Origin: an uncultured Chloroflexia bacterium
GTDB taxonomy: Bacteria > Chloroflexota > Limnocylindria > Limnocylindrales > CSP1-4
Reading direction: 5' to 3'
NCBI GenBank assembly: GCA_963752475.1
Contig: CAVVYR010000007.1
Coordinates: 224,001-288,000 of the forward strand
DNA: 64,000 nt
Both the position numbers and the translations under genes were made by a program. The notes under the pieces were generated by a model that saw only the letters and a program-made list of their open reading frames with translations, was not told the DNA's origin and made no database searches. This document shows positions 8,967 through 31,436 of the stretch, in pieces. Each line of letters opens with the position of its first letter. Within the stretch, counting starts at the first letter, position 1.

Positions 8967-9835
8967 ATGGTCCCATCGTCGTCACCGGCGCCCTCGGCAA
9001 CGTAGGCTCGGCCGTGGTGGAGCACTTGCTCGGCCGGAGCGCCTCCGTGCGCGCGGTGGACATCCACCCTGACGCGCTGACGGCGCGCTTCGGCTCGGAC
9101 CTCGAGGTCGCCAGGCTCGACTTCGGGGAACCAGCCAGCTTCGCCCCCGTGCTCGATGGCGCGAGGAAGGTCTTCCTCATCCGACCCCCGGCCATCAGCC
9201 GCGTGGGACCGACGCTCAACCGCTTCCTCGATGACGCCGCCGAGGCCGGCGTCGAGCACGTCGTCTTCAGCTCGGTCGCGGGCGCGGACACCAACCGGGT
9301 CGTGCCCCATCACCGCGTCGAGCAGCACCTCTTCGCAGGCGATCTCGCTTGGACCATCCTGCGGCCCGGCTTCTTCAGCCAGAACATCGGCAGCGCCTAT
9401 CGACAGGACATCGTGGAGGACGACCGCATCTTCATCCCCGCGGGGGAGGGCAAGGTCGCCTTCATCGACGCGCGCGACATCGGCGAGGTGGCCGCAGTGG
9501 CCCTGACCGAGGACGGCCACCAAGGTCAGGCCTACCATCTCACCGGGCCCCAGGCGCAGACGATCGAGGAGGTCGCGGCGGTCATGTCCGAGGTCCTGGG
9601 TCGGACGATCAGGTACGAGCCGGCGTCGGCCTTCGGCTACTTCCGCCACCTCCGCGGACAGGGGCTGGTGGTGGTCCAGGCGGTGGTGCAGACGATCCTC
9701 CACGTCGGACTGCGCAAGGGTGATGCCGAGCCGGTGACCGACACCATCGAGCGACTGCTCGGCCGGCCGGCCCGGAGTGTGCAGGAGTACGTGACCGACC
9801 ACGCGGACCTCTGGGCTCAAGACTCCAAGGGCTGA
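8963..9835 (+). CDS. NmrA-like / atypical SDR NAD(P)H-binding protein
   Basis: VTGALGNVG, WTILRPGFFSQN, FIDARDIGEVAA; ATGA overlap with tetR. Confidence 0.9.
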   Translation: MNGPIVVTGALGNVGSAVVEHLLGRSASVRAVDIHPDALTARFGSDLEVARLDFGEPASFAPVLDGARKVFLIRPPAISRVGPTLNRFLDDAAEAGVEHVVFSSVAGADTNRVVPHHRVEQHLFAGDLAWTILRPGFFSQNIGSAYRQDIVEDDRIFIPAGEGKVAFIDARDIGEVAAVALTEDGHQGQAYHLTGPQAQTIEEVAAVMSEVLGRTIRYEPASAFGYFRHLRGQGLVVVQAVVQTILHVGLRKGDAEPVTDTIERLLGRPARSVQEYVTDHADLWAQDSKG

Positions 9836-9992
9836 TATGCGTCGTTGTACGGGGTCGGATGATGACACCGACCCCACGTGGAGACCAGCGAGTGGCTAGC
9901 GACAGGTCCGACCCAAGCGATATGCGTCGTAGCACGGGGTCGGATGATGACATCGACCCCACGGGGAGACCAGCGAGTGGATAGCGACAGGT
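9834..9992. repeat. 74-bp direct repeat x2 (period 85) with internal hairpin
   Basis: Copies 9834-9907 and 9919-9992, 5 mismatches; each holds GGGGTCGG-atgatgaca-(C/T)CGACCCC. Confidence 0.85.
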
Positions 9993-10253
9993 GGACGATA
10001 GCGGCACGGCCGCGAACAAAGGTGACCGAGAGATGTCGAGGAGGTCCCCAGACCGACTGAACTTGATGCCGGCCCCCCGACCCTTGGCCGTGACGCTTCG
10101 TCCTGCCGAGTGTGATGCCCACAGGACGATGGTCTCTACGAGCTGCTACGTGCCGCCCCAACGGGAGTCGTGGCCGATTTCTCGGCGTCGTCCGAGAGCG
10201 TGCGGTCGCTTGGCGCAGGGAAGTCGGGTCGAGCTCACGTATGCTCACGACAG

Positions 10254-10646
10254 ATGAGTTCGAACGAGAAGACCAAGGGGCCGGTGCGAGGCTGGGTCCG
10301 GCCCGGCGCGCGTCGCGGTCGCTGGATCGAGCCGTTCGTATTGCTGCTCATCGCCGAAGGACCGATCCACGGGTACTCGGTCATCAGCCAGCTGAACAAG
10401 CTCGGTCTCAACTCCGACGGCGTCGACGTCGGGATGGTCTACCGCACACTGCGAGAGCTCGAGGCCGAGGGCCTTGTCAGCACGAAGTGGGGCCTCGAGG
10501 AGGGACCGCCGAAGCGCGAGTACCAGCTCACCGCGAATGGGCAGGAGTCACTCGATGAGTGGGTCGCGGTGATGATCGAGCGTCGACGCCTCATCAAGAC
10601 GTTCCTTGAGCGGCGTCGTCGGATCGGAGGACCCGAGGAGGGCTGA
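10254..10646 (+). CDS. PadR family transcriptional regulator (copy 1)
   Basis: EPFVLLLIAEGPIHGY..GMVYRTLRELEAEGLV..KREYQLTANG; start reassigned to ATG 10254. Confidence 0.92.
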   Translation: MSSNEKTKGPVRGWVRPGARRGRWIEPFVLLLIAEGPIHGYSVISQLNKLGLNSDGVDVGMVYRTLRELEAEGLVSTKWGLEEGPPKREYQLTANGQESLDEWVAVMIERRRLIKTFLERRRRIGGPEEG

Positions 10647-10714
10647 CACGGATCCGGCGGGAGTGCCTTGGGCCTTGCTGCCACCGGCCTGGAACTCCGG
10701 ACTCGACGGATCAT

Positions 10715-10765
10715 GGGCCCTTCGGCCCTTGCCGATCCGTTCGTACAACGTATGCTATTAGCATA
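10715..10765 (+). promoter_or_regulatory. Putative promoter with GGGCCCTTCGGCCC box, -35 TTGCCG and palindrome TATGCTATTAGCATA over -10
   Basis: Perfect 7-1-7 palindrome 10751-10765; same architecture at 17947-17997 and on the minus strand at 17696-17747. Confidence 0.7.
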
Positions 10766-10923
10766 TGACTGCGATAGACATCATTGGCCATGGACCTGCG
10801 GCCGGGTACGTCCAGTTCGAAACTCTGGAGGTTCGCGCGGACAGGCTGCGTGAGCAGCTCGAGCACGTCGAATCGGAGTTCGAAGACCTGACGCCGCAGC
10901 GACGTCAGGCTGGCGGGAGCTAG
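10765..10923 (+). CDS. 52-aa small coiled-coil protein (DUF5320-like tail), absent from the ORF track
   Basis: MTAIDIIGHGPAAGYVQFETLEVRADRLREQLEHVESEFEDLTPQRRQAGGS*; heptad segment aligns with the C-terminus of 18742..19077; stop 4 nt before the radical SAM start. Confidence 0.65.
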   Translation: MTAIDIIGHGPAAGYVQFETLEVRADRLREQLEHVESEFEDLTPQRRQAGGS

Positions 10924-10927
10924 ACCC

Positions 10928-12013
10928 ATGACCTCGGGAGTCGCCACCGGTGGCCCCGCGACGGGAGCCGCCGGGCGCACCAACGAGACCGCGACCGATG
11001 TGTCTGCGCACGCCCATCAGTTGCCGATCGTGTTCGGGCCCGTCCACTCGCGTCGCCTCGGCTGGAGCCTGGGTATCAACAACGTGCCGCCCAAGACGTG
11101 TTCCTACGCCTGCATCTACTGCCAGGTCGGCGCTACCACGCGCGCCAGCATCAGGCGAGAAGCCTATCTCGAGCCGAACCTCGTGGCCGAGTCTGCCCTC
11201 GAGCGCATCAGGGCCTGTCGAGACTCCGGGCAGACCATCGACTACGTCACGTTCGTGCCGGACGGCGAGCCGACATTGGATGTCAACCTCGGCGAGGCGA
11301 TCCGAGCCATCCGCGCGCCGGACGTCCGGGTTGCGGTCCTCACCAACGCCAGCCTGCTCTGGCGCGAGGATGTCAGGGAAGACCTCATCGCTGCCGACTG
11401 GGTGTCGCTCAAGATCGACACCGTGGACGAGCGCACGTGGACGCAACTGAACAGACCCATCCGGCGACTCGATCTCACGGTGGTGCTCGAGGGCGTTCGT
11501 CGCTTCGCTGAGGACTTCCGCGGCTACCTCGCGACCGAGACCATGCTCGTGGCCGGCGTGAACGACGACGAGGACGGTGTGCGAAGCGTGGCCGACTTCG
11601 TGCGGTCGCTCCAGCCCTCCCGTGCCTACATCTCGGTCCCGGTCCGGCCCGCTGTCGTGCCCTGGGTGCGACCGCCCCTGGCTGACGTCGCCTTGCAGGC
11701 CGCCGAGTCGTTCGCAGCGACCGGCCTACGGACCACGCTACTCAGTTGCGATCAGGCCGATACGGGTTTTGCACCAGCGCAAGATGTGATCGAGGGACTG
11801 ATAGGGATCCTCGCCGTGCACCCCATGACCGAGCGGGCGGTACGTGAGTACGTGGCGAGGTCGGCGGTCGAATGGCGACGTGTCGAGGAACTGATCGACG
11901 AGGGCACGCTCATCCGGACGCCGCGTGGCCTGACGACGTACCTGTGCCTTGATCATGCCCGCCTGCGAGGTAGCGACGGCACGATGACGGGCCCCGGGCG
12001 GCAAGGAGCGTGA
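10928..12013 (+). CDS. Radical SAM Fe-S protein (COG0731-like, function unknown)
   Basis: FGPVHSRRLGWSLGIN..CSYACIYC (CxxxCxxC), DGEPTL, ETMLVAGVND. Confidence 0.9.
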   Translation: MTSGVATGGPATGAAGRTNETATDVSAHAHQLPIVFGPVHSRRLGWSLGINNVPPKTCSYACIYCQVGATTRASIRREAYLEPNLVAESALERIRACRDSGQTIDYVTFVPDGEPTLDVNLGEAIRAIRAPDVRVAVLTNASLLWREDVREDLIAADWVSLKIDTVDERTWTQLNRPIRRLDLTVVLEGVRRFAEDFRGYLATETMLVAGVNDDEDGVRSVADFVRSLQPSRAYISVPVRPAVVPWVRPPLADVALQAAESFAATGLRTTLLSCDQADTGFAPAQDVIEGLIGILAVHPMTERAVREYVARSAVEWRRVEELIDEGTLIRTPRGLTTYLCLDHARLRGSDGTMTGPGRQGA

Positions 12014-12016
12014 CCC

Positions 12017-12967
12017 ATGCGAGCGCAAGGACTCCTGTCGTACGTCCTCTGTCTGTCGTTGACGGCCGTGCTGACCCTCGGCGGCTGCACGGGCTCCAGC
12101 GCCGAGATCGACACCGACCGTCCCGTGGTCGTGGCCACGACGACCATCCTCGGCGACCTCGCTTCGCGTGTCGCCGGGGACGAGGCTGTGGTCGAGGTCC
12201 TGATCCCCATCGGCGCTGACCCGTGCACGTACGAGGCGACGTCGGAACAGGCCATGAACCTCCTCCGGGCCGACCTGGTCATCTCGAGCGGCCTTGGCCT
12301 CGAAGCGGGACTGGCTGAGGCTCTGGGCGAGGCGGAGCGCCGAGGCACCCGGATGCTGCGGCTCGGAAACGAGCTCTACCCGCGCCACGTCGGTAGCGCC
12401 GACGAAGCGCTCGACCCCTACTGGTGGATGGATCCCCTGCGCGCCGCGGGCTCGGTCACGCTCATCGCCGACAGCCTGCTCGGGGTCCGCGATGGCGACT
12501 GGGTGACGCGAGCGCTGGAGGCCGACAAGGCGCTCTGCGCTCTCGATGACCAACTTCGCGATGTGCTGCGACGGAGCGGATCCGAGCCGCGGCGCCTCAT
12601 CACGGACGGGCAGGGGCTCGGGTACTTCGCCGAACGATACGACTGCATCGTCACGGACCTGGACCTGTCACCCCTCGAGTCGCTGGGTCCGTCGTCGGTC
12701 ACGATGGCTCCGACCTGGGCTGACGAGTGGTCCGGCGGAAGCGAGAGCCGGATCCCGCTGAACGTGCCGAGACGACGGGGCGTCAGCCTGGTGGACCCCC
12801 ATATGCCAGGCGGCGTGAGCGCGGAGACGGTAAGCGTCTACGTGGACTCGCTCGGAGCGCCGGGATCAGGGGCCGAGACCTACGAAGACATGATGCGCAC
12901 CAACGCGGATCGGATCACCCACGCCGGGCAGAACGTGCTCGTCGAGTGGACGCATCCGGACGTGTAG
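12017..12967 (+). CDS. ZnuA/TroA-fold solute-binding lipoprotein with non-canonical ligands (copy A)
   Basis: LGGC lipobox; VVATTTILGDL, PIGADPCTYE, GLGLE, DPYWWMDP, DSLG..TYEDMMRTN. Confidence 0.8.
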   Translation: MRAQGLLSYVLCLSLTAVLTLGGCTGSSAEIDTDRPVVVATTTILGDLASRVAGDEAVVEVLIPIGADPCTYEATSEQAMNLLRADLVISSGLGLEAGLAEALGEAERRGTRMLRLGNELYPRHVGSADEALDPYWWMDPLRAAGSVTLIADSLLGVRDGDWVTRALEADKALCALDDQLRDVLRRSGSEPRRLITDGQGLGYFAERYDCIVTDLDLSPLESLGPSSVTMAPTWADEWSGGSESRIPLNVPRRRGVSLVDPHMPGGVSAETVSVYVDSLGAPGSGAETYEDMMRTNADRITHAGQNVLVEWTHPDV

Positions 12968-13023
12968 CCAAACGACAGGCGGAGGCCGGATGATCGCCAT
13001 CCGCCGACAACAGGAAGGTGGCA

Positions 13024-14070
13024 ATGGCCATGGAGAAGTCCGAACTCGATCCACGTTCGACCGCTCGTGCGCTCGTGGCGCCGGGCAAGGGGATCCTCGC
13101 CGCCGACGAGTCGTCCCCGACGATCGAGAAACGCTTCAAGTCGGTCGGTGTGGAGTCGACCGAGGAGAACCGGCAGGCATACCGGGAGATGCTCTTCCGC
13201 ACCCCGGGCATCGAGGCCTACATCAGCGGGGTGATCCTCTTCGACGAGACGATCCGGGGTTCGACCTCGGACGGGACTCCCTTTCCCGAGCTGCTGGCGG
13301 CCCGAGGGATCATCCCCGGCATCAAGGTGGACAAGGGCGCGAAGCCGCTGGCCGGGGCCGCGGGCGAGAAGATCACCGAGGGCCTCGACGGCCTGCGCGA
13401 GCGCCTGGTCGAGTACCGGGATCTGGGGGCTCGCTTCACGAAGTGGCGGGCCGTCTACGCCATCGGTCCCGGGACCCCATCTGAGCGGTGCGTCCGCACC
13501 AACGCCGTCGAGCTGGCCCGCTTCGCGGCGCTCTCGCAGGAGGCCGGACTCGTGCCCATCATCGAGCCCGAGGTCTTGATGGATGGGGAACACGACATCG
13601 AGTCGAGTGCGGACGTGACCGGTCACGTCCTGCAGTCCGTCTTCGAGGAGTTGCATGTCCAACGCATCCGGCTCGAGGAGCTCCTGCTCAAGACGAACAT
13701 GGTGCTGTCGGGCTATGACAGCCCGGACCCGGAATCGCCCGACGTGACAGCCCTTTGGACGGTTCGCTGCCTGGCACGCCACGTCCCGGTGGCGGTACCA
13801 GGCGTCGTATTCCTGTCCGGAGGCCAGTCCGAGGAGCTGGCCACGGTGAACCTCGACGCCATCAACCGGCGCGGTGGCCATCCCTGGGAGCTGTCGTTCT
13901 CGTTCGGGCGAGCGCTCCAGTCCAGCGCACTCCGCGCCTGGGCGAACGATCCCACCGATGTCGCCAGCGCCCAAGGTGAGTTGCAGCGGCGCTCCGCCGA
14001 CACGGCTGCGGCGCGGACCGGCTCGTACGTCCCGAGCGATCCACCCACGAACGTCGGCGCCCATGCCTAG
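13024..14070 (+). CDS. Fructose-bisphosphate aldolase class I (Schiff-base, animal/plant type)
   Basis: GKGILAADES, GIKVD, KWR, IEPE, LLKTNMV, FLSGGQSE, SFGRALQ all intact. Confidence 0.95.
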   Translation: MAMEKSELDPRSTARALVAPGKGILAADESSPTIEKRFKSVGVESTEENRQAYREMLFRTPGIEAYISGVILFDETIRGSTSDGTPFPELLAARGIIPGIKVDKGAKPLAGAAGEKITEGLDGLRERLVEYRDLGARFTKWRAVYAIGPGTPSERCVRTNAVELARFAALSQEAGLVPIIEPEVLMDGEHDIESSADVTGHVLQSVFEELHVQRIRLEELLLKTNMVLSGYDSPDPESPDVTALWTVRCLARHVPVAVPGVVFLSGGQSEELATVNLDAINRRGGHPWELSFSFGRALQSSALRAWANDPTDVASAQGELQRRSADTAAARTGSYVPSDPPTNVGAHA

Positions 14071-14094
14071 CCCATCCTCCAGCTGGTCCGGAGC

Positions 14095-14316
14095 CATGGC
14101 CAACGGTGGTTGACGCCCCCTTGCCGGAATCGCAGCCCCGGTTTCCGCCGCCGCTTCTCGGAGACCGGCCGCATCATCGCCAAGGGCCAAGGCAACTACG
14201 AGTCGCTCAGTGAGATGGCGGCTCCGATCCACTTCCTGTTCAAGGTCAAGTGCTCTGTCGTCGCCGAGCACATCGGAGAGCCGGTGGGTACGCACGTGGT
14301 GACCCGCTCCGACTAA
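14095..14316 (+). pseudogene. C-terminal remnant of a DUF89/ARMT1-like damage-control phosphatase
   Basis: SPGFRRRF..IIAKGQGNYESL..IHFLFKVKCSVVAEHIG matches the DUF89 C-terminal KGxGNYE..KC motif; upstream NG-x-DAP is out of frame; N-terminal part absent. Confidence 0.7.
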
Positions 14317-14461
14317 TAGGGCACCTGATGCTCGGTCGCAAGCAGGGCTGTCGGGCGGCATCCGTCCGGCTCGGCCGAAGCGTGGGCCCTACCAGACGGC
14401 ACGGTGATCGGCTGCGGCTCGGCCCGAATCCCAGTCGAGGGTGCGGAAGCGTCTCCGGATG

Positions 14462-15235
14462 TCAGATACGGGAGCGGCCTTGGGCGGCGACCGCGGCCTC
14501 CGCTGCTGCGATCGTCTCGGGATCGCCGAGGTAGCGATGCTCGATCGGTCGGAGCGACCTGTCGAGGCGATAGAGGAGTGGTGTCCCCGTGGGGATGTTC
14601 AGGCCGGCGATCGCCTCGTCATCCAACTGATCGAGGTGTTTGACCAGGGCTCTGAGGCTGTTGCCATGCGCCACCAGCAGGACCCGCTGACCGGCATCGA
14701 GCTGAGGCGCGACCTCGGCATCCCAATACGGGAGGACCCGCTCGATGGTGTCTGCCAGCGACTCGGAACGCGGTAGCAGATCCGTCGCGATGTGGGCATA
14801 GCGCTCGTCCCGCGTCGGCACACGATCATCCCCCGGATCGAGCGCCGGCGGGCGCACCCCGTAGCTGCGGCGCCAGGCATGGACGAGCTCCTCGCCGAGT
14901 CGCTCGGCGGTCTCCGACTTGCTCAGCCCTTGAAGCGCCCCGTAGTGACGCTCGTTGAGCCGCCATGATCTCTGGACCGGGATCCACATCGACTGAAGAT
15001 CATCGAGGACGATCCATAGGGTCCTGATGGCACGCTTCAGGACGGAGGTGAAGGCGACATCGAACCGCAGGTCGGCCTCTCGCAGGTACCGCGCCGCGTC
15101 ATGTGCCTCGGCGATGCCCTGGTCGGTCAGATCGACGTCGGTCCAGCCGGAGAAGCGGTTCTCTCGGTTCCACGTGCTCTCGCCGTGGCGTAGCAGCACG
15201 AGGATCCGCTCAGTGCCGCTGTGGTGCATCGCCAT
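14462..15235 (-). CDS. gpmA: 2,3-bisphosphoglycerate-dependent phosphoglycerate mutase
   Basis: [39 protein letters not shown]. Confidence 0.96.
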
Positions 15236-15249
15236 CTCTGTGCTCCTTC

Positions 15250-15606
15250 CTAGGCCGCGGGCAGCTCGTGGGGCACGGCGTCAGAGGGGCTGCCCCCTCG
15301 CTGGATCGTAAACCGGTAGTCGTCGCCCAGCCTGACATCGAGCAGGGGGTTGCCCGAGGCATGCGTCCACGCGAGCAGGACCAGGACGGAACTCGGGTCA
15401 CTGGACAGGACCTCAAGGACTTCTCCACAGAGGAGACGGCTGATGGCTCGGGAGATCGCGGGCATGGCGTCGGCTACCGAGATCCCGCGTACGTCCGTCC
15501 TGGCGCTCGTGCGGGACTCGCGGTCCTGGGGGACCGTCCGGCCTGGCAGGTCATGGCGCCCGGGCCATGGGAGCCGCAGGAGTGGACCTGATGCGAGGCG
15601 ACTCAT
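15250..15606 (-). CDS. TusA/SirA-fold protein lacking the CPxP cysteine
   Basis: DVRG.......[25 protein letters not shown] pattern; ATGA-coupled to the upstream gene. Confidence 0.65.
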
Positions 15607-16511
15607 GTCAGAGCCTCAGCGATCCGATCGGCGGTCGTCCACATCATCTCGTAGTAGGTCTCGGCACCGGATCCGGGTCCTCCCAGGGAGCACAGGTCGA
15701 GTGCTACGACCTCCGTGCCCTTGCCCGCCTCGGCAGCGAGAGCTTCGGCGGAGTCCACGGATTTGATGGAGTCGGTGAACACTACGTTGATCCCGTCGGC
15801 CTGCATGATGTCAGCGAGGTCGGCGAGGCTCTCGGGGTCATGCCGTGGACCGGTCGCCCTGCCATCTTCGACGACGCCTCCCACCTCGAAGCCGAAACGG
15901 TCCGCGAAATAACGCAACTCACCGTGCGATGTGAGCAACCGCCGATCGTTGGGTGGAACCCGACCAAGCGCGTTGGCCATCTGTTGGCCGAGCATCGACA
16001 GGTTCGCCGCCACCGCCTCGGCTCTCGGCGCCAGTCTGAGGCACACCGCGGGATCGTCACTCTCCGCGGACAGTCGCTCGGCGATGAGTCGGACCGCTGC
16101 AGCGGCTCGGTTCGGATCCAGCCACCAGTAGGGATCGAGCCTGGTATCGTCCTCTGCTATCGCGAGCGGTCCGAGCATGGCGCCCAACTCGAGGATGGGA
16201 ACGCCCTCGGTGCTGGCCGCGGCGAGAGCGTCGGCGAGGCCAGCCTCCAGGCCGAGTCCGCTGGTGACGATCAGATCAGCGTCGCGCATGTCGGTGGCCT
16301 GGCGGGCCGACGGTCGGAAGTCGCAAGGATCGGCCCCGATGGGCATCAAGACCTCGAGCTGCACCGTGCCGCGACCGATCTGGTCGACGAGATCACCGAC
16401 GATGGACGTCGTCGCGACGACCCGCATCCGGTCCCCCTCGCTCTGGGCGCCCATACATCCGGTCAATGCGAGGGCACTGGCCAGGGCGAAGGTCAGTAGG
16501 CGGATGATCAT
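15603..16511 (-). CDS. ZnuA/TroA-fold solute-binding lipoprotein with non-canonical ligands (copy B)
   Basis: LTGC lipobox; VVATTSIVGDL, PIGADPCDFRPS, DPYWWLDP, TSHGELRYFA, LCSLG..TYYEMM. Confidence 0.85.
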   Translation of the reverse strand: MIIRLLTFALASALALTGCMGAQSEGDRMRVVATTSIVGDLVDQIGRGTVQLEVLMPIGADPCDFRPSARQATDMRDADLIVTSGLGLEAGLADALAAASTEGVPILELGAMLGPLAIAEDDTRLDPYWWLDPNRAAAAVRLIAERLSAESDDPAVCLRLAPRAEAVAANLSMLGQQMANALGRVPPNDRRLLTSHGELRYFADRFGFEVGGVVEDGRATGPRHDPESLADLADIMQADGINVVFTDSIKSVDSAEALAAEAGKGTEVVALDLCSLGGPGSGAETYYEMMWTTADRIAEALT

Positions 16512-16562
16512 GGCTCACACTCCTCATGTCTCGGGATCGGCTGGCCTCGCACGGCGTGCGCG

Positions 16563-17591
16563 TCAGGCTGCAAGGACGACGGCCGGTGTCGTCCGACGGG
16601 CGCGATCACAGGTCGCGAGGCGAGTGGCCCAGCGGCAGAGCATGTCCTGGGCCGCGTGCGCATCCCTGTCATGCCGTGCCCATGCACGCAGCGTGCTCGC
16701 CATGGCGTCCGGGCCCAACGAGTACGACAGCGGCCACGGGAGGTCGCGCCGGCGTTGGATCCTCTCGCAGGATCGCGCAACCACGGCTGCTGGCAACGAC
16801 TCGGCCGAGAGCACCACGCCCGGCACCTCCTCGGGAACCTGCCCTCGGAGACAGCCCAGGGTCGCCATCGCGACCGAGTCGGGATCGACCTTCTGCATGA
16901 AGCCATGGTTCGGCGCGATGAGGCTGGCGCCGATCAGGAGATCCTCGATGCTGGCGTGATGGACGTAGAGCTCGGCGACCAGCGTGGCGAGGGCATCTTC
17001 CATGGTGCGACGGCTCCGCTCGATATCGTGGTCACCGAAGGGGGCGATCCGGACGTCGACGATGGGCAACAGGCCGGCCTGCTGCGAGAGGGTCGCGAAG
17101 TTGGCCAGTCGGACCGCGTTCGTCCTGATGCACGTCTCGGTAGGCATGTCGTGGTCGATGAGGCAGTACGCACGCCAGGTCGCGAACCTCGCACCACGCC
17201 GGCGGTACTGCTCGAGTCGATCGGGGAGATGCTCGATGCCGGCGGTCACGCCCTCGCGGGACGAACCTGTGAACATGCGCTGCCCCAGGTCGACCCGGAT
17301 CCCCGGCATGAGCTGTCGCTCGGCGAGCAGCTCCACGAATGACGGGCCCTTCGTGACTCGCTGTCGGATGGCCTCGTCTGAGAGGACTACCCCGCTGACG
17401 TGCTCTTCGAGGCCCGGGGTCGTGAACAGCATCTGCCGGTATGCTCGCCGGTCCTCCGCGGTCGAGCCGAGCCCGGCCCAGCGGAAGCGTCGCTCCACGA
17501 TCGGGACCGGTTCATCGACCGCGAGGATCACCTTTCTCGGCGCGACCAGGGTCAGTGCCTGGTCCGACAGTTCCTGTGTTGCGCGCTGCAT
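16563..17591 (-). CDS. Class I aldolase homolog with degenerate active site (pseudoenzyme candidate)
   Basis: Co-linear with 13024..14070 (RAYRQMLFTTPG, CIRTNAVRLA) but GIRVD, ATWR, IVDVR, LIGASL, SLGPD replace the catalytic motifs; GAAGGGA RBS before ATG 17591. Confidence 0.8.
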   Translation of the reverse strand: MQRATQELSDQALTLVAPRKVILAVDEPVPIVERRFRWAGLGSTAEDRRAYRQMLFTTPGLEEHVSGVVLSDEAIRQRVTKGPSFVELLAERQLMPGIRVDLGQRMFTGSSREGVTAGIEHLPDRLEQYRRRGARFATWRAYCLIDHDMPTETCIRTNAVRLANFATLSQQAGLLPIVDVRIAPFGDHDIERSRRTMEDALATLVAELYVHHASIEDLLIGASLIAPNHGFMQKVDPDSVAMATLGCLRGQVPEEVPGVVLSAESLPAAVVARSCERIQRRRDLPWPLSYSLGPDAMASTLRAWARHDRDAHAAQDMLCRWATRLATCDRARRTTPAVVLAA

Positions 17592-17678
17592 GGCGTCCCT
17601 TCTGCCTCGCCTGGAGATGGTGTCCGCGGCGCTGTCCGTTGCCTCCACGTGGCACGACTACCCCAGTCGCGTTTGGTT

Positions 17679-17747
17679 AGTGTTTTTAGCATTTGTATGC
17701 GTTTAGCATCTATATGTTAGACGCGTTCCACAAGGGCCGGTAGGCCT
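17679..17747 (-). promoter_or_regulatory. Putative promoter/operator array for the minus-strand operon
   Basis: AT-rich; three variants of the TATGCT-N3-AGCAT motif at 17679, 17696, 17713 (17-bp period); minus strand reads GGCCC-TTGTGG-N17-GATGCT. Confidence 0.65.
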
Positions 17748-17946
17748 CATCGGTCGTGCCCTGCGGACTGGGTCTCCGGATCGAGAGACGTGACATCTCG
17801 ACATCCCGAGCGAGGGATGACAGGAGGCTGTGGAGCGTCCGGATCGGAGGGATAGACGTCAACGGGAGCGCATGGGCGGGTCCGGCATCGACAGGGTCGA
17901 CCGGACGCCACGCCCGGCTCCAAGAGGTTCTCCGACCGGCCACGTG

Positions 17947-17997
17947 ATGCCTTCTGGCCCTTGGCGTCGACTGTGGCACACGTATGCTAAGAGCATG
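17947..17997 (+). promoter_or_regulatory. Putative promoter with island palindrome TATGCTAAGAGCAT
   Basis: GGCCC-TTGGCG-N16-TATGCT, same geometry as 10715-10765. Confidence 0.6.
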
Positions 17998-18165
17998 CAG
18001 ATGTCATTGACGATCTCCCACCGAAGGCAGCAAGAGATGAACCCAGGGACTCGACGACGCGGATACGTGCCTGAGTCGCGCCAGCTTGTCACGCTGGCGA
18101 AGCCTGGTCGCCTGCCACAGGTCCCGGGCCAGACGCCTCCGGAGTTGCTGCTCGAACTGCTCTAG
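17995..18165 (+). CDS. Possible 56-aa small ORF or non-coding transcript
   Basis: ATG 6 nt after TATGCT; no recognisable homology. Confidence 0.25.
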   Translation: MQMSLTISHRRQQEMNPGTRRRGYVPESRQLVTLAKPGRLPQVPGQTPPELLLELL

Positions 18166-18309
18166 GCGTGATGGGTGTGCCCAAGCAGGCTCACCCTACC
18201 CGCCGTGGACAGCACCGCCGTGGCCGTCGAAACGGGGAACGAGGGTTCGACACCAAGCGCTCTCCCGGGACCCGCAGGCTGGCGCAACCTCGATGGAACC
18301 CAAGAGGTG

Positions 18310-18324
18310 TATGCTGTTAGCATA
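18310..18324. promoter_or_regulatory. Island palindrome TATGCTGTTAGCATA over the -10 and start of padR copy 2
   Basis: gtatgct(a/g)ttagcatatgactgcgat shared with 10750-10775. Confidence 0.7.
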
Positions 18325-18740
18325 TGACTGCGATGAACACTGAGCGACGAGTCGGAAGCGGCTGGAGCACACGAGGACACCATCACGGCGCGCACCACAG
18401 TTCACGTCGGGGGCGCTGGGTGGAACCCTTCGTCCTGCTGCTCGTGGCCCAGGGGCCGACCTACGGATACAAGCTCATAGGTGAGTTGGACGAGCTGGGT
18501 GTGGCGCCTGAAGGGATCGATCCCGGGATGGTCTATCGCACCTTGCGAACCATGGACGCAGACGGCCTCGTGACCACAGCATGGGGCCTGGAGGGCGATC
18601 AGCCCCGACGTGAGTACCGCCTCACCGAGGATGGTGCCTGCGCCCTCGAGGACTGGCTCGACGTCATGAACGAGCGGCGACGCCTCATCGACCACTTCAT
18701 CCAGCACGGAGCTGCCATCACACGAGAACAGGGGAGATGA
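18324..18740 (+). CDS. PadR family transcriptional regulator (copy 2), His-rich N-terminus
   Basis: RGRWVEPFVLLLVAQGPTYGY..GMVYRTLR..RREYRLTEDG; GHHHGAHH leader. Confidence 0.92.
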   Translation: MTAMNTERRVGSGWSTRGHHHGAHHSSRRGRWVEPFVLLLVAQGPTYGYKLIGELDELGVAPEGIDPGMVYRTLRTMDADGLVTTAWGLEGDQPRREYRLTEDGACALEDWLDVMNERRRLIDHFIQHGAAITREQGR

Positions 18741-18741
18741 T

Positions 18742-19077
18742 ATGAGTTGCCATCACCGCTACTACCCGCATGGCTGCGGCGATTGGCCCGCGCCACCACC
18801 CGACTGGTACGACGCCTATGGCTACCGGCCGAGCCGCTATCGCGATGACGTCGTCGTGCTGCGCGACGAAGGTGACGAGGACTTCGCGGAAGAACGTCCA
18901 CGCCGACGCCGTGGAAGCGGACGAGGACGCTATCGCCGAGCAGGCGACATCGTCACCGAAGAGGCCACGGTAGCGTCGCTGCAGTCCCAGGCTGAGGCAC
19001 TTCGAGATGAGCTGGTCCGGATCGAAGCTGAACTGGCCAAGCTTTCGGCGGAGCCCAGCCAGGCGTCGGATACCTGA
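18742..19077 (+). CDS. Small Cys/His-rich, Arg/Gly-rich, C-terminal coiled-coil protein (DUF5320-like architecture)
   Basis: MSCHH..HGCG N-terminus; SLQSQAEALRDELVRIEAELAKL heptads; GGGGAG RBS, starts 1 nt after the padR stop. Confidence 0.7.
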   Translation: MSCHHRYYPHGCGDWPAPPPDWYDAYGYRPSRYRDDVVVLRDEGDEDFAEERPRRRRGSGRGRYRRAGDIVTEEATVASLQSQAEALRDELVRIEAELAKLSAEPSQASDT

Positions 19078-31361: not shown

Positions 31362-31436
31362 TCCGGCGTAGCTCAGTGGTAGAGCGTTCGGCTGTTAACC
31401 GAGTGGTCGTAGGTTCGAATCCTACCGCCGGAGCCA
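31362..31436 (+). tRNA. tRNA-Asn (GTT)
   Basis: TCCGGCG/CGCCGGA acceptor stem, AGCTCAGTGGTAGAGC D-arm, CTGTTAA loop, GGTTCGAATCC, encoded CCA. Confidence 0.97.

Follow-up and report, generated by a model that had tools for sequence, protein, structure and literature searches.

The 64,000-nucleotide stretch analysed here (the window; C7:224001-288000 of its own genome) comes from a soil Chloroflexota genome. It carries a gene island that combines two PadR-family regulators, a radical SAM enzyme, the metal-free glycolytic isozymes class I fructose-bisphosphate aldolase (FBA) and GpmA, and ZnuA-like binding proteins. We judge this island to be a real, locally regulated metal-cofactor stress module, and a PadR protein with its small Cys/His partner to be an undescribed regulator pair. 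The island may be a local regulon of padR2 and cc111, in which a holo-repressor is released on loss of a metal or cluster; this reading is quite possible but falls a little short of probable. The genome comprises 4,246,097 bp in 38 contigs and is 89% complete, the G+C content of the window is 65-72%, and in public data its closest relatives are metagenome-assembled genomes (MAGs) that carry the label Chloroflexia or Chloroflexota.

The plus-strand unit consists of cc52, the radical SAM gene, ZnuA-like A and FbaI_A (the first two gaps are 3-4 nt, the last 50 nt), with padR1 upstream. The minus-strand unit begins with fbaI_B, followed by znuA_B, the tusA-like gene (4-nt overlap with the znuA_B stop) and, after a 14-nt gap, gpmA; orf56, padR2 and cc111 lie beyond it. 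Gene calls were checked with Pfam and NCBIfam profiles, which confirmed the gene content described in an earlier note on this DNA; all twelve genes that it named lie where it had placed them (Table 1).

Metal-free isozymes behind a shared promoter-operator module

FbaI_A passes the class I FBA profile and has all six catalytic residues in the aldolase alignment (A1), namely Asp33, Lys107, Lys146, Glu187, Lys229 (the Schiff base) and Arg303, in rabbit muscle numbering. GpmA likewise passes NF010713 as well as TIGR01258 (375.5 vs. 81.7 bits), with LLRHGES, which contains the RHGE catalytic motif, in its translation. The earlier note had proposed a swap to these isozymes, and both metal-dependent counterparts are indeed encoded outside the island: a class II ketose-bisphosphate aldolase on contig C8 (TIGR00167, 232 bits vs. 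215.6) and the cofactor-independent phosphoglycerate mutase (iPGM) at C7:499576 (TIGR01307, 589 bits vs. 331). The sole PF00274 (class I FBA) genes and the sole cofactor-dependent phosphoglycerate mutase (dPGM) of the genome are inside the island. Of 36 genomes of the same genus, 32 gave a match to iPGM, 23 to a class II aldolase, seven to a class I aldolase and four to dPGM, which in all four lies beside or within ~3 kb of the class I aldolase. Since iPGM occurs in 32/36 genomes and the paired dPGM in 4/36, the metal-dependent mutase is regarded as core and FbaI-GpmA as an accessory linked unit. A comparable exchange is described in excerpts of PMC6684088 and PMC9973326, in which GpmA and FdaB of S. 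aureus replace the metal-dependent isozymes under Mn starvation.

The palindrome ATGCT-N3-AGCAT has four perfect sites in the whole genome, three of which are inside the island. Allowing at most one mismatch, five sites were found in the window, a number reached in none of 100 shuffles (average 0.86); four of the five are in the island, at 10752, 17697 (one mismatch), 17984 and 18311. The claim that one palindrome marks both operons and padR2 is thus borne out by three perfect sites and one variant. The site at 10752 lies 3' of padR1, directly before cc52, and the perfect site at 17984 fronts orf56, an open reading frame (ORF) missing from the earlier list whose product is 58% identical over 50 aa to a counterpart in the related locus L009.

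Alignment of the upstream regions revealed a common layout of ~50 nt: a GC-rich palindrome with a TTCG-like centre, TTG, ~16 nt, xATGCT, N3, RGCAT and ATG. This ATG opens cc52, orf56 and padR2 directly, and on the minus strand an ATG follows 4 nt further on, upstream of fbaI_B. In module 1, TTG is -35-like and TATGCT is -10-like, the latter doubling as the left operator half. The operator of module 2 is the variant ATGCGTTTAGCAT, and GGCCCTTG precedes it on the minus strand; the window contains two copies of GGCCCTTG-N20-ATGCT vs. 0.00 expected, and a loose pattern of the module matched the whole genome only twice, both times at island copies. Together, the four copies face cc52-rSAM-znuA_A-fbaI_A (rSAM, radical SAM gene), fbaI_B-znuA_B-tusA-like-gpmA, orf56 and padR2-cc111. 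Upstream of padR1, TATGCT (10240-10245) is retained and the right operator half is lost. Two terminator-like sites in a scan are at chance level.

Outside the island there is one perfect palindrome (C29:23813), within a 514-nt gap, and a 479-aa HAD/5'-nucleotidase-like ORF follows 457 nt downstream of it; the rest of the promoter module is absent there and the match is likely due to chance. A 46-aa ORF (17552-17692, minus strand) begins 4 nt past the variant operator, in a leaderless position, and extends, in a different frame, over the 5' end of fbaI_B. It may encode a leader peptide or have arisen by chance.

The island has counterparts in other genomes. The comparison covered the best 80 radical SAM loci in GTDB representative genomes. 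In ten of these 80 (L009-L018) a padR gene lies just upstream; six of the ten have a ZnuA-like gene and four have FbaI and GpmA, so that the suggested co-occurrence of PadR, radical SAM, class I FBA, gpmA and ZnuA-like genes is found beyond the window. The core cluster in related Chloroflexota MAGs consists of PadR, a CxHxxHxC coiled-coil protein, the radical SAM enzyme, Dps, FbaI, GpmA and ZnuABC. In L012, L013 and L016 the order is padR, small protein, rSAM, (CbiA-type ATPase, Zn-ribbon protein), Dps, FbaI, GpmA and ZnuA; L013 continues with an ABC-3 permease, an ATPase and a CDF gene that overlaps the znuC end by 4 nt, and in L010 Dps and hemerythrin are ahead of ZnuABC. The ligand positions of the relatives' ZnuA are His/His/His, and the CDF protein carries H-x3-D twice (HD-HD type). 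The module is present at the padR start in L009-L015 and L017, i.e. eight of the ten PadR-rSAM loci. With an AT-rich spacer it occurs once per genome, at padR, in all five relatives searched whole; extra palindrome matches in these five all have GC-rich spacers and look like chance. Module 3 and orf56 are also present in L009.

Table 1. Features of the island, with strand and supporting profile match or position
Feature	Position in window	Strand	Evidence
padR1	10254-10646	+	PF03551, 58 bits
Promoter-operator module 1	10715-10764	+	ends at cc52 ATG
cc52, 52-aa coiled-coil ORF	10765-10923	+	no family
Radical SAM	10928-12013	+	PF04055, 62.9 bits
ZnuA-like lipoprotein A (ZnuA_A)	12017-12967	+	PF01297, 124.6 bits
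Class I FBA (FbaI_A)	13018-14070	+	NF033379, 475.9 bits, cut-off 250
DUF89 (ARMT1-like phosphatase) C-terminal remnant, 68 aa	14110-14316	+	PF01937 positions 250-310 of 311
gpmA	14462-15235	-	NF010713, 384 bits, cut-off 305
TusA/DUF2249-like small protein	15250-15606	-	PF01206, 21.1 bits, under Pfam cut-off 28.6
ZnuA-like lipoprotein B (ZnuA_B)	15603-16511	-	PF01297, 176.5 bits
Pseudo-aldolase FbaI_B	16563-17648 (probable start 17591)	-	PF00274, 244 bits
Promoter-operator module 2, variant	17697-17750	-	faces fbaI_B operon
Promoter-operator module 3	17947-17996	+	fronts orf56
orf56, 56 aa, no known family	17995-18165	+	ORF list
Operator 4	18311-18323	+	abuts padR2 ATG
padR2	18324-18740	+	PF03551, 54.5 bits
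cc111, 111 aa	18742-19077	+	weak DUF5320 match, E=0.043

PadR and its small Cys/His partner

Both padR products score over the PF03551 cut-off of 27 bits. Of the two, PadR2 and its orthologs have a His-rich N-terminal tail that PadR1 does not have (PadR alignment A2). The start of cc111 is 1 nt after the padR2 stop, and the distance between the padR stop and the start of the small gene is 1-2 nt in all seven relatives parsed. The cc111 protein is built of an N-terminal M-S-C-x-H...H-x-C head, an Arg-rich linker and a C-terminal coiled coil, and with 111 aa it is longer than its relatives (84-92 aa). In the alignment of the small Cys/His protein (A3, eight rows), M1, C3, H5, H10, C12 and G13 are invariant, and position 2 is Gly or Ser in all eight rows as well as in the profile matches inspected. 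The other small ORF, cc52, is a truncated chimeric relative of this protein that lacks the Cys/His head. Codons 1-5 of cc52 are a copy of the padR2 start (31-nt repeat, 90%), and its C-terminal 23 aa match a small ORF of L009. The A3 profile does not recognise it.

A search of 1.84 billion representatives with the small-protein profile returned 112 proteins at E<=0.001, of which 63 at <=1e-10. The motif C-x-H-x(2-5)-H-x-C is present within the first 40 residues of 46/106 matches shorter than 150 aa, and many others have variant Cys/His heads. Within the family, the small protein was found in 25 of 201 genomes and 12 of 49 genera. A phylum-wide draw of 401 genomes gave eight with the protein (the window's own, 6/23 of the same family and 1/16 of one other family) and none elsewhere, and a related-locus search with the single small protein gave one locus. 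In a further survey of 20 additional PadR-small-protein loci of the same family, PadR adjoins a match to the small protein in 20/20. A predicted complex of two copies of PadR2 with cc111, made from A2 and A3, scored 0.00, with the partner's own fold being uncertain, and speaks neither for nor against such a complex.

The match of cc111 to DUF5320 (PF17253) reaches 15.4 bits vs. a cut-off of 27 and covers the C-terminal coiled coil only, so that cc111 is at best a distant relative of that family. No paper on the function of DUF5320 was found in the literature search, nor one combining 'PadR family', 'zinc' and 'metal-sensing'. For PadR with metalloregulator, titles and opening lines of abstracts showed nothing relevant, and a search for DUF134 gave mostly prefix matches to other DUF numbers.

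A small ORF next to a radical SAM gene might also suggest a RiPP precursor. This reading was rejected: the small protein travels with PadR, rSAM being present in just three of the 20 PadR loci, and it has a conserved coiled coil and no leader/core layout. In three further loci (L167:2834-3127, L168 and L169) a conserved protein of ~97 aa without a Pfam family is encoded just after PadR and the small protein, adjoining hemerythrin or NifX-like genes.

Composite history and site-altered proteins

As claimed earlier, four gene types are present twice in the island, the paralogs sharing ~40-50% protein identity. On the DNA level, the aldolase paralogs form an inverted repeat (185 nt at 74%), as do the ZnuA-like paralogs (105 nt at 71% and 77 nt at 74%), and padR1 and padR2 form a direct repeat (45 nt at 82%). 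A recent mirror duplication is ruled out by the paralog identity of only 40-50%, and the arrangement is only loosely a mirror. L009 is the closest relative, with a radical SAM protein that is 78% identical and a plus-strand unit that is collinear at 85% DNA identity. It has gpmA, the tusA-like gene, the operator and orf56 in common with the window; absent from it are window positions 15569-17923 (znuA_B, fbaI_B and the variant operator), padR2 and cc111. The padR2-cc111 cassette with its operator is found in the same-genus genome G001 (77% over 567 nt) in a different context. Because L009 is without fbaI_B-znuA_B and padR2-cc111, and the cassette is placed elsewhere in G001, the 'mirror' is explained by additions to an older operon. 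By these sequence comparisons, the island is a composite of three parts: the older operon, the fbaI_B-znuA_B pair inserted into it, and the padR2 cassette, which moves separately.

FbaI_B aligns over its full length to solved aldolases (E=2e-56) and passes NF033379 (276 vs. 250 bits). Of the catalytic residues, Lys107 is replaced by Leu, Lys146 by Thr, Glu187 by Asp, Lys229 (the Schiff base) by Gly and Arg303 by Pro, in addition to Glu189 by Arg. By its residues, FbaI_B therefore belongs to the aldolase fold family and would not be an aldolase by Schiff-base chemistry. Four metagenomic orthologs (77-83%) and one 49% relative have the same losses, mostly with the same replacement residues. In a maximum-likelihood tree of 51 rows, a quick version and not a careful search, the pseudo-aldolase clade has an SH-aLRT of 100, stem branches of 0.46 and 0.70 and tips of 0-0.11, and is sister to FbaI_A and its L009 counterpart (95, short branch). 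Long stems with short tips fit a burst of change that then gave way to constraint, not ongoing decay. No FbaI_B ortholog was found in the 36 same-genus genomes, the best match in GTDB representatives is 45% identical, and one metagenome scan for FbaI_B and ZnuA_B orthologs returned a closest relative of only 41%.

Both ZnuA-like proteins keep a lipoprotein-type signal sequence and the PF01297 domain; for ZnuA_A the match covers profile positions 1-196 and a weak C-terminal piece, this lobe being divergent. In cluster A-I binding proteins (ZnuA/PsaA/TroA), four metal ligands are expected: His, His, His or Glu, and Asp (or water). The alignment comprises 120 proteins, and in 106 of them these positions read H/H/H plus G, E or D. 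The earlier description of altered binding proteins holds for both paralogs, neither of which has this ligand set. ZnuA_A has Cys/Tyr/Gly/Asp, as does its L009 counterpart, and the 62% identical protein P0148 keeps Cys/Tyr/Asp with Gln in third position. ZnuA_B has Cys/Tyr/His/Cys; among its ~10 orthologs (64-77%), positions 1-3 vary (H/R/C, H/Y and Q/R/H) and the Cys in fourth position is conserved. FbaI_B-like and ZnuA_B-like proteins come from contigs of equal size in four cases (205447, 4809, 5027 and 9599 bp), which suggests that the two genes are a linked pair. A role of the pseudo-aldolase and the altered binding proteins as sensors or scaffolds, as proposed earlier, is a guess. No ABC-3 permease or ATPase is encoded among the ORFs of the island, which thus has no complete cluster A-I importer; the only ABC-3 permease of the genome is at C29:57743-58606, next to a canonical ZnuA.

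dN/dS was computed against L009 and amounts to 0.25 for rSAM, 0.41 for ZnuA_A, 0.20 for FbaI_A and 0.41 for TusA-like. Together with the conserved orthologs and the shape of the tree, these values indicate that the duplicated genes are not free-running pseudogenes. None of the three outcomes that the earlier note had named as fatal to its reading (no conservation, dN/dS ~1, no co-regulation) was found. In L009 itself, the padR1 ortholog (L009:9564-9812) lacks ~50 internal aa and with them the recognition helix and the wing, and frameshifts are present in DUF89 (L009:13326-14175) and gpmA (L009:15988-16626). Such changes could reflect genuine decay or errors in a long-read assembly, and the frameshifts are given no weight here.

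The radical SAM protein scores above the PF04055 cut-off of 29.5 bits and its CxxxCxxC motif (C58/C62/C65) is invariant in 32 sequences. A PDB sequence search gave no matches and the sequence has no ESM Atlas entry. It belongs to a widespread uncharacterised family found beside NifX-like, MinD/CbiA Fe-S ATPase, DUF134 and DUF89 genes. Several neighbours recur over the 80 loci: MinD/CbiA-like ATPases in 23, NifX-like proteins in 16, a methyltransferase in 14 and DUF134-like proteins in seven, with a further mixed group in nine, some with DUF89; these labels come from the reading of example sequences and are Pfam-confirmed for L012 and L173 only. Using tblastn, DUF89 was found beside rSAM in L009, L016, L041, L042, L047, L060 and L075. 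Relative to L009, ~790 nt of DUF89 are deleted in the window, where only the C-terminal end of the 311-position domain remains. The TusA-like protein, 69% identical in L009, has no Cys at the aligned place, where TusA has its conserved catalytic Cys in a CPxP motif. In a genome of the same family (G198), L173:2467-7767 encodes PadR, the small Cys/His protein, two NifX-like proteins, an ATPase, DUF89 and the radical SAM enzyme in a row. The ATPase is a 771-aa double CbiA protein with 4Fe-4S domains, DUF89 is full-length, the radical SAM protein has a C-terminal ArsR-type HTH and GpmA follows ~4 kb on. This locus links PadR to the anaerobe-type DUF134/DUF5320 neighbourhood.

Three observations stand apart from these genes. 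Between an NmrA-like gene and padR1, two tandem 85-nt units (9834-10003; 74 nt at 93%) each contain a GC-rich hairpin, with no second copy in the genome and no Rfam family. The sole Rfam match in the window is a tRNA gene at 31362-31433. Elsewhere in the genome (C36:51000-51359; L149:1462-2493), a 343-aa ORF fuses a Fur-family domain to a SAM-dependent methyltransferase domain, an unusual architecture.

Proposed regulon, rival explanations and known systems

In the proposed regulon, the left operator half would serve as the -10 element and transcripts would be leaderless, and for that reason a PadR dimer bound to the palindrome would block initiation. As co-repressor, a metal ion or cluster would sit in the His-rich tail of PadR and in the CxH...HxC head, and loss of this cofactor (Zn or Fe limitation, or displacement by an oxidant) would derepress the units. 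FbaI_A and GpmA might then run the two glycolytic steps of the class II aldolase and iPGM encoded elsewhere, and in relatives the same cassette would also drive His3-type ZnuABC, Dps and hemerythrin. An older, widespread cofactor-type cluster would have left behind the radical SAM gene and the stub of DUF89. FbaI_B and ZnuA_B would be a conserved pair, non-catalytic and with altered sites, that entered the gpmA operon by insertion. Of the stress module outlined in the earlier note, the co-regulation with metal-free isozymes stands, based on the shared operator and the conservation; the mirror history does not. A bolder version holds that PadR and the Cys/His-head protein form a new two-protein transition-metal or Fe-S sensor outside the described metalloregulator families, nearly confined to one Chloroflexota family, with an operator merged with the -10 element and start codon of genes transcribed without a leader. 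This sensor would have spread to four promoters in the island and captured the pseudo-aldolase/pseudo-binding-protein pair as a non-catalytic accessory responding to sugar-phosphate or metal. As a whole, this version is doubtful.

Several points weigh against the regulon as proposed. The cargo at the 20 further PadR loci is hemerythrin in nine, rSAM in three, Dps in two, adjacent ZnuABC in one and GpmA in one, and other PadR loci carry NifX-like proteins, the double CbiA/4Fe-4S ATPase, full-length DUF89, rhodanese and SufE. Because ZnuABC is found in 1/20, hemerythrin is commonest and Fe-S-type cargo occurs elsewhere, zinc is not the common denominator. Going by gene content, the common theme is metal cofactors in general (Zn, Fe, Fe-S). 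Candidate triggers are the loss of Zn or Fe, a toxic metal and an oxidant. The metal or redox signal of the earlier note is accordingly upheld only in general terms: His3 ZnuABC and the HD-HD CDF point to zinc, Dps, hemerythrin, NifX-like and SufE also to iron, Fe-S or oxygen, and no single signal is singled out. Furthermore, the genome has two Fur-family genes and a canonical ZnuABC, which could handle zinc by themselves; padR1 and cc52 are without metal-type motifs; the class II enzyme passes the ketose-bisphosphate aldolase subfamily cut-off and no FBA equivalog cut-off; and a class II aldolase is present in only 23 of the 36 genus genomes. A consensus sigma-70 scan found no promoters in the island, so that we infer the -35, -10 and leaderless reading from the layout only. 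Short contigs with 0-6 differences in RNA runs X8, X13 and X14 (two studies) cover parts of rSAM, znuA_A, fbaI_A, tusA-like, znuA_B, fbaI_B and the padR2/cc111 junction; these are metagenomic, may contain carried-over DNA, and say nothing on strand, starts, levels or conditions.

PadR regulators are usually released when they bind a ligand, and sensors of excess or toxins typically have an autoregulated operon headed by the repressor gene. This fits better with a rival in which the regulon and the pair are the same and the logic is opposite: a toxic metal (Ni, Co, Cd or Cu) or an oxidant would bind or oxidise the N-terminal Cys/His head and release PadR, as a defence against mis-metallation. 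The metal-free aldolase and mutase would then bypass poisoned enzymes, the relatives' Zn importer would outcompete the intruder and the CDF protein export it, and Dps and hemerythrin would handle iron and oxygen damage. The motif lies at the extreme N terminus with Gly or Ser at position 2, which would permit Met removal and leave a free amine next to Cys, reminiscent of Ni/Co/Cu sites such as RcnR, NiSOD and ATCUN. The HD-HD type CDF after the importer in L013 and the frequent Dps and hemerythrin cargo would fit as well. A report that class II FBA is the primary nickel target in E. coli (Macomber et al. 2011, as cited in an excerpt of PMC6460284) points in the same direction. However, no catalase, peroxiredoxin or dedicated Ni/Co exporter is present in the loci examined. 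Since a zinc-type sensor inducing a zinc importer would be odd, the inducer would have to be a non-zinc metal, and the sequence indicates no other metal. We consider this rival unlikely, if less so than the two that follow.

It is improbable that the island is a biosynthetic or cofactor-maturation cluster derived from the DUF134/PadR-DUF5320-NifX-like-MinD/Fe-S ATPase-DUF89-radical SAM neighbourhood, with the aldolase, mutase and DUF89 feeding or processing a sugar-phosphate for rSAM and no backup of glycolysis. The recurrent MinD/CbiA, NifX-like, methyltransferase, DUF134 and DUF89 neighbours over the 80 rSAM loci speak for it, as does L173, which shows the full set with PadR and, ~4 kb on, GpmA. 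However, FbaI_A and GpmA are far over glycolytic equivalog cut-offs, and in relatives the FbaI-GpmA pair travels next to ZnuABC with no DUF89 in between. Such a pathway would be broken in the window, where DUF89 survives only as a deletion stub and the called ORFs of the island include neither a NifX-like gene nor one for a MinD/CbiA-like ATPase. Still less probable is the absence of any joint function, i.e. a variable region with decaying duplicates in which the palindrome is a duplicated promoter fragment. Signs of ongoing erosion are the remnant of DUF89, the shortened cc52 and the loss of one half of the padR1 operator; catalytic or ligand residues are lost in three proteins; znuA_B, fbaI_B, padR2 and cc111 are missing even in the closest relative; and the cassette is patchy (25/201 family genomes). 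Against this, the FbaI_B orthologs are intact and, with the 49% relative, have the same substitutions on long stems with short tips; ~10 orthologs of ZnuA_B exist; and proteins like both are encoded on four equal-sized contigs, two of them just 4.8 and 5.0 kb. The dN/dS values of 0.20-0.41 and the operators at matching positions relative to start codons likewise argue for constraint.

Compared with known systems, the island under the proposed regulon resembles S. aureus in the exchange of dPGM for Mn-dependent iPGM and of class I for class II aldolase, with the metal-dependent enzymes also present in both genomes. According to an excerpt of PMC9973326, the S. aureus genes are unlinked and FdaB is under ArlRS, whereas here a single island contains both isozymes under a common PadR-type operator. 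The isozyme operon of relatives includes ZnuABC and Dps as well. Zur-type zinc-sparing regulons combine zinc-independent paralogs and ZnuABC under one repressor. Likewise, an importer and cofactor-independent paralogs are here under one operator, with a His3-type ZnuA in relatives. In contrast to Zur-type regulons, the island has PadR and a small partner in place of a Fur-family protein, its own operator and a local range (one operon in relatives), and the two Fur-family genes of the genome sit outside it. With PadR, LmrR and BcPadR it shares a PF03551 winged-helix protein of ~110-140 aa, encoded by the first gene of a seemingly controlled unit, and a palindromic operator. Neither the His-rich tail and obligate Cys/His coiled-coil partner nor the metal-related cargo and an ATGCT-N3-RGCAT operator fused to the -10 element and start codon are described in the portions of the PadR literature found, which include an excerpt of PMC3506622. 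The DUF134/DUF5320/NifX-like/MinD-type ATPase/radical SAM neighbourhood of anaerobic bacteria and archaea has a radical SAM protein at 40-50% identity, neighbours in common in 7-23 of the 80 loci, and a small coiled-coil protein beside a DNA-binding protein, in line with the weak DUF5320 match of cc111. It differs in that PadR takes the place of DUF134, the small protein has a Cys/His head, and the window is without NifX-like and ATPase genes and has a DUF89 stub.

Isozyme swapping within a metal-stress regulon is a known concept. The regulator pair, the operator architecture and the pseudo-aldolase/altered binding-protein pair are not described in the literature searched, in which no system with the composition of the island was found either, in agreement with the earlier note. 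The lysine-less aldolase and the ligand-altered ZnuA-like lipoprotein offer a clean case for studies of pseudoenzyme retention. If the PadR/small-protein pair senses a metal or cluster, it would be a new sensor family in a field of about a dozen, and would offer a first way into the function of DUF5320-like proteins and of the widespread radical SAM/NifX/MinD/DUF89 neighbourhood. The metal-free glycolytic swap is known from a pathogen under metal starvation by its host; the island suggests that the same swap takes place in free-living sediment and soil Chloroflexota, where a single regulon may tie it firmly to genes for the transport and storage of metals.

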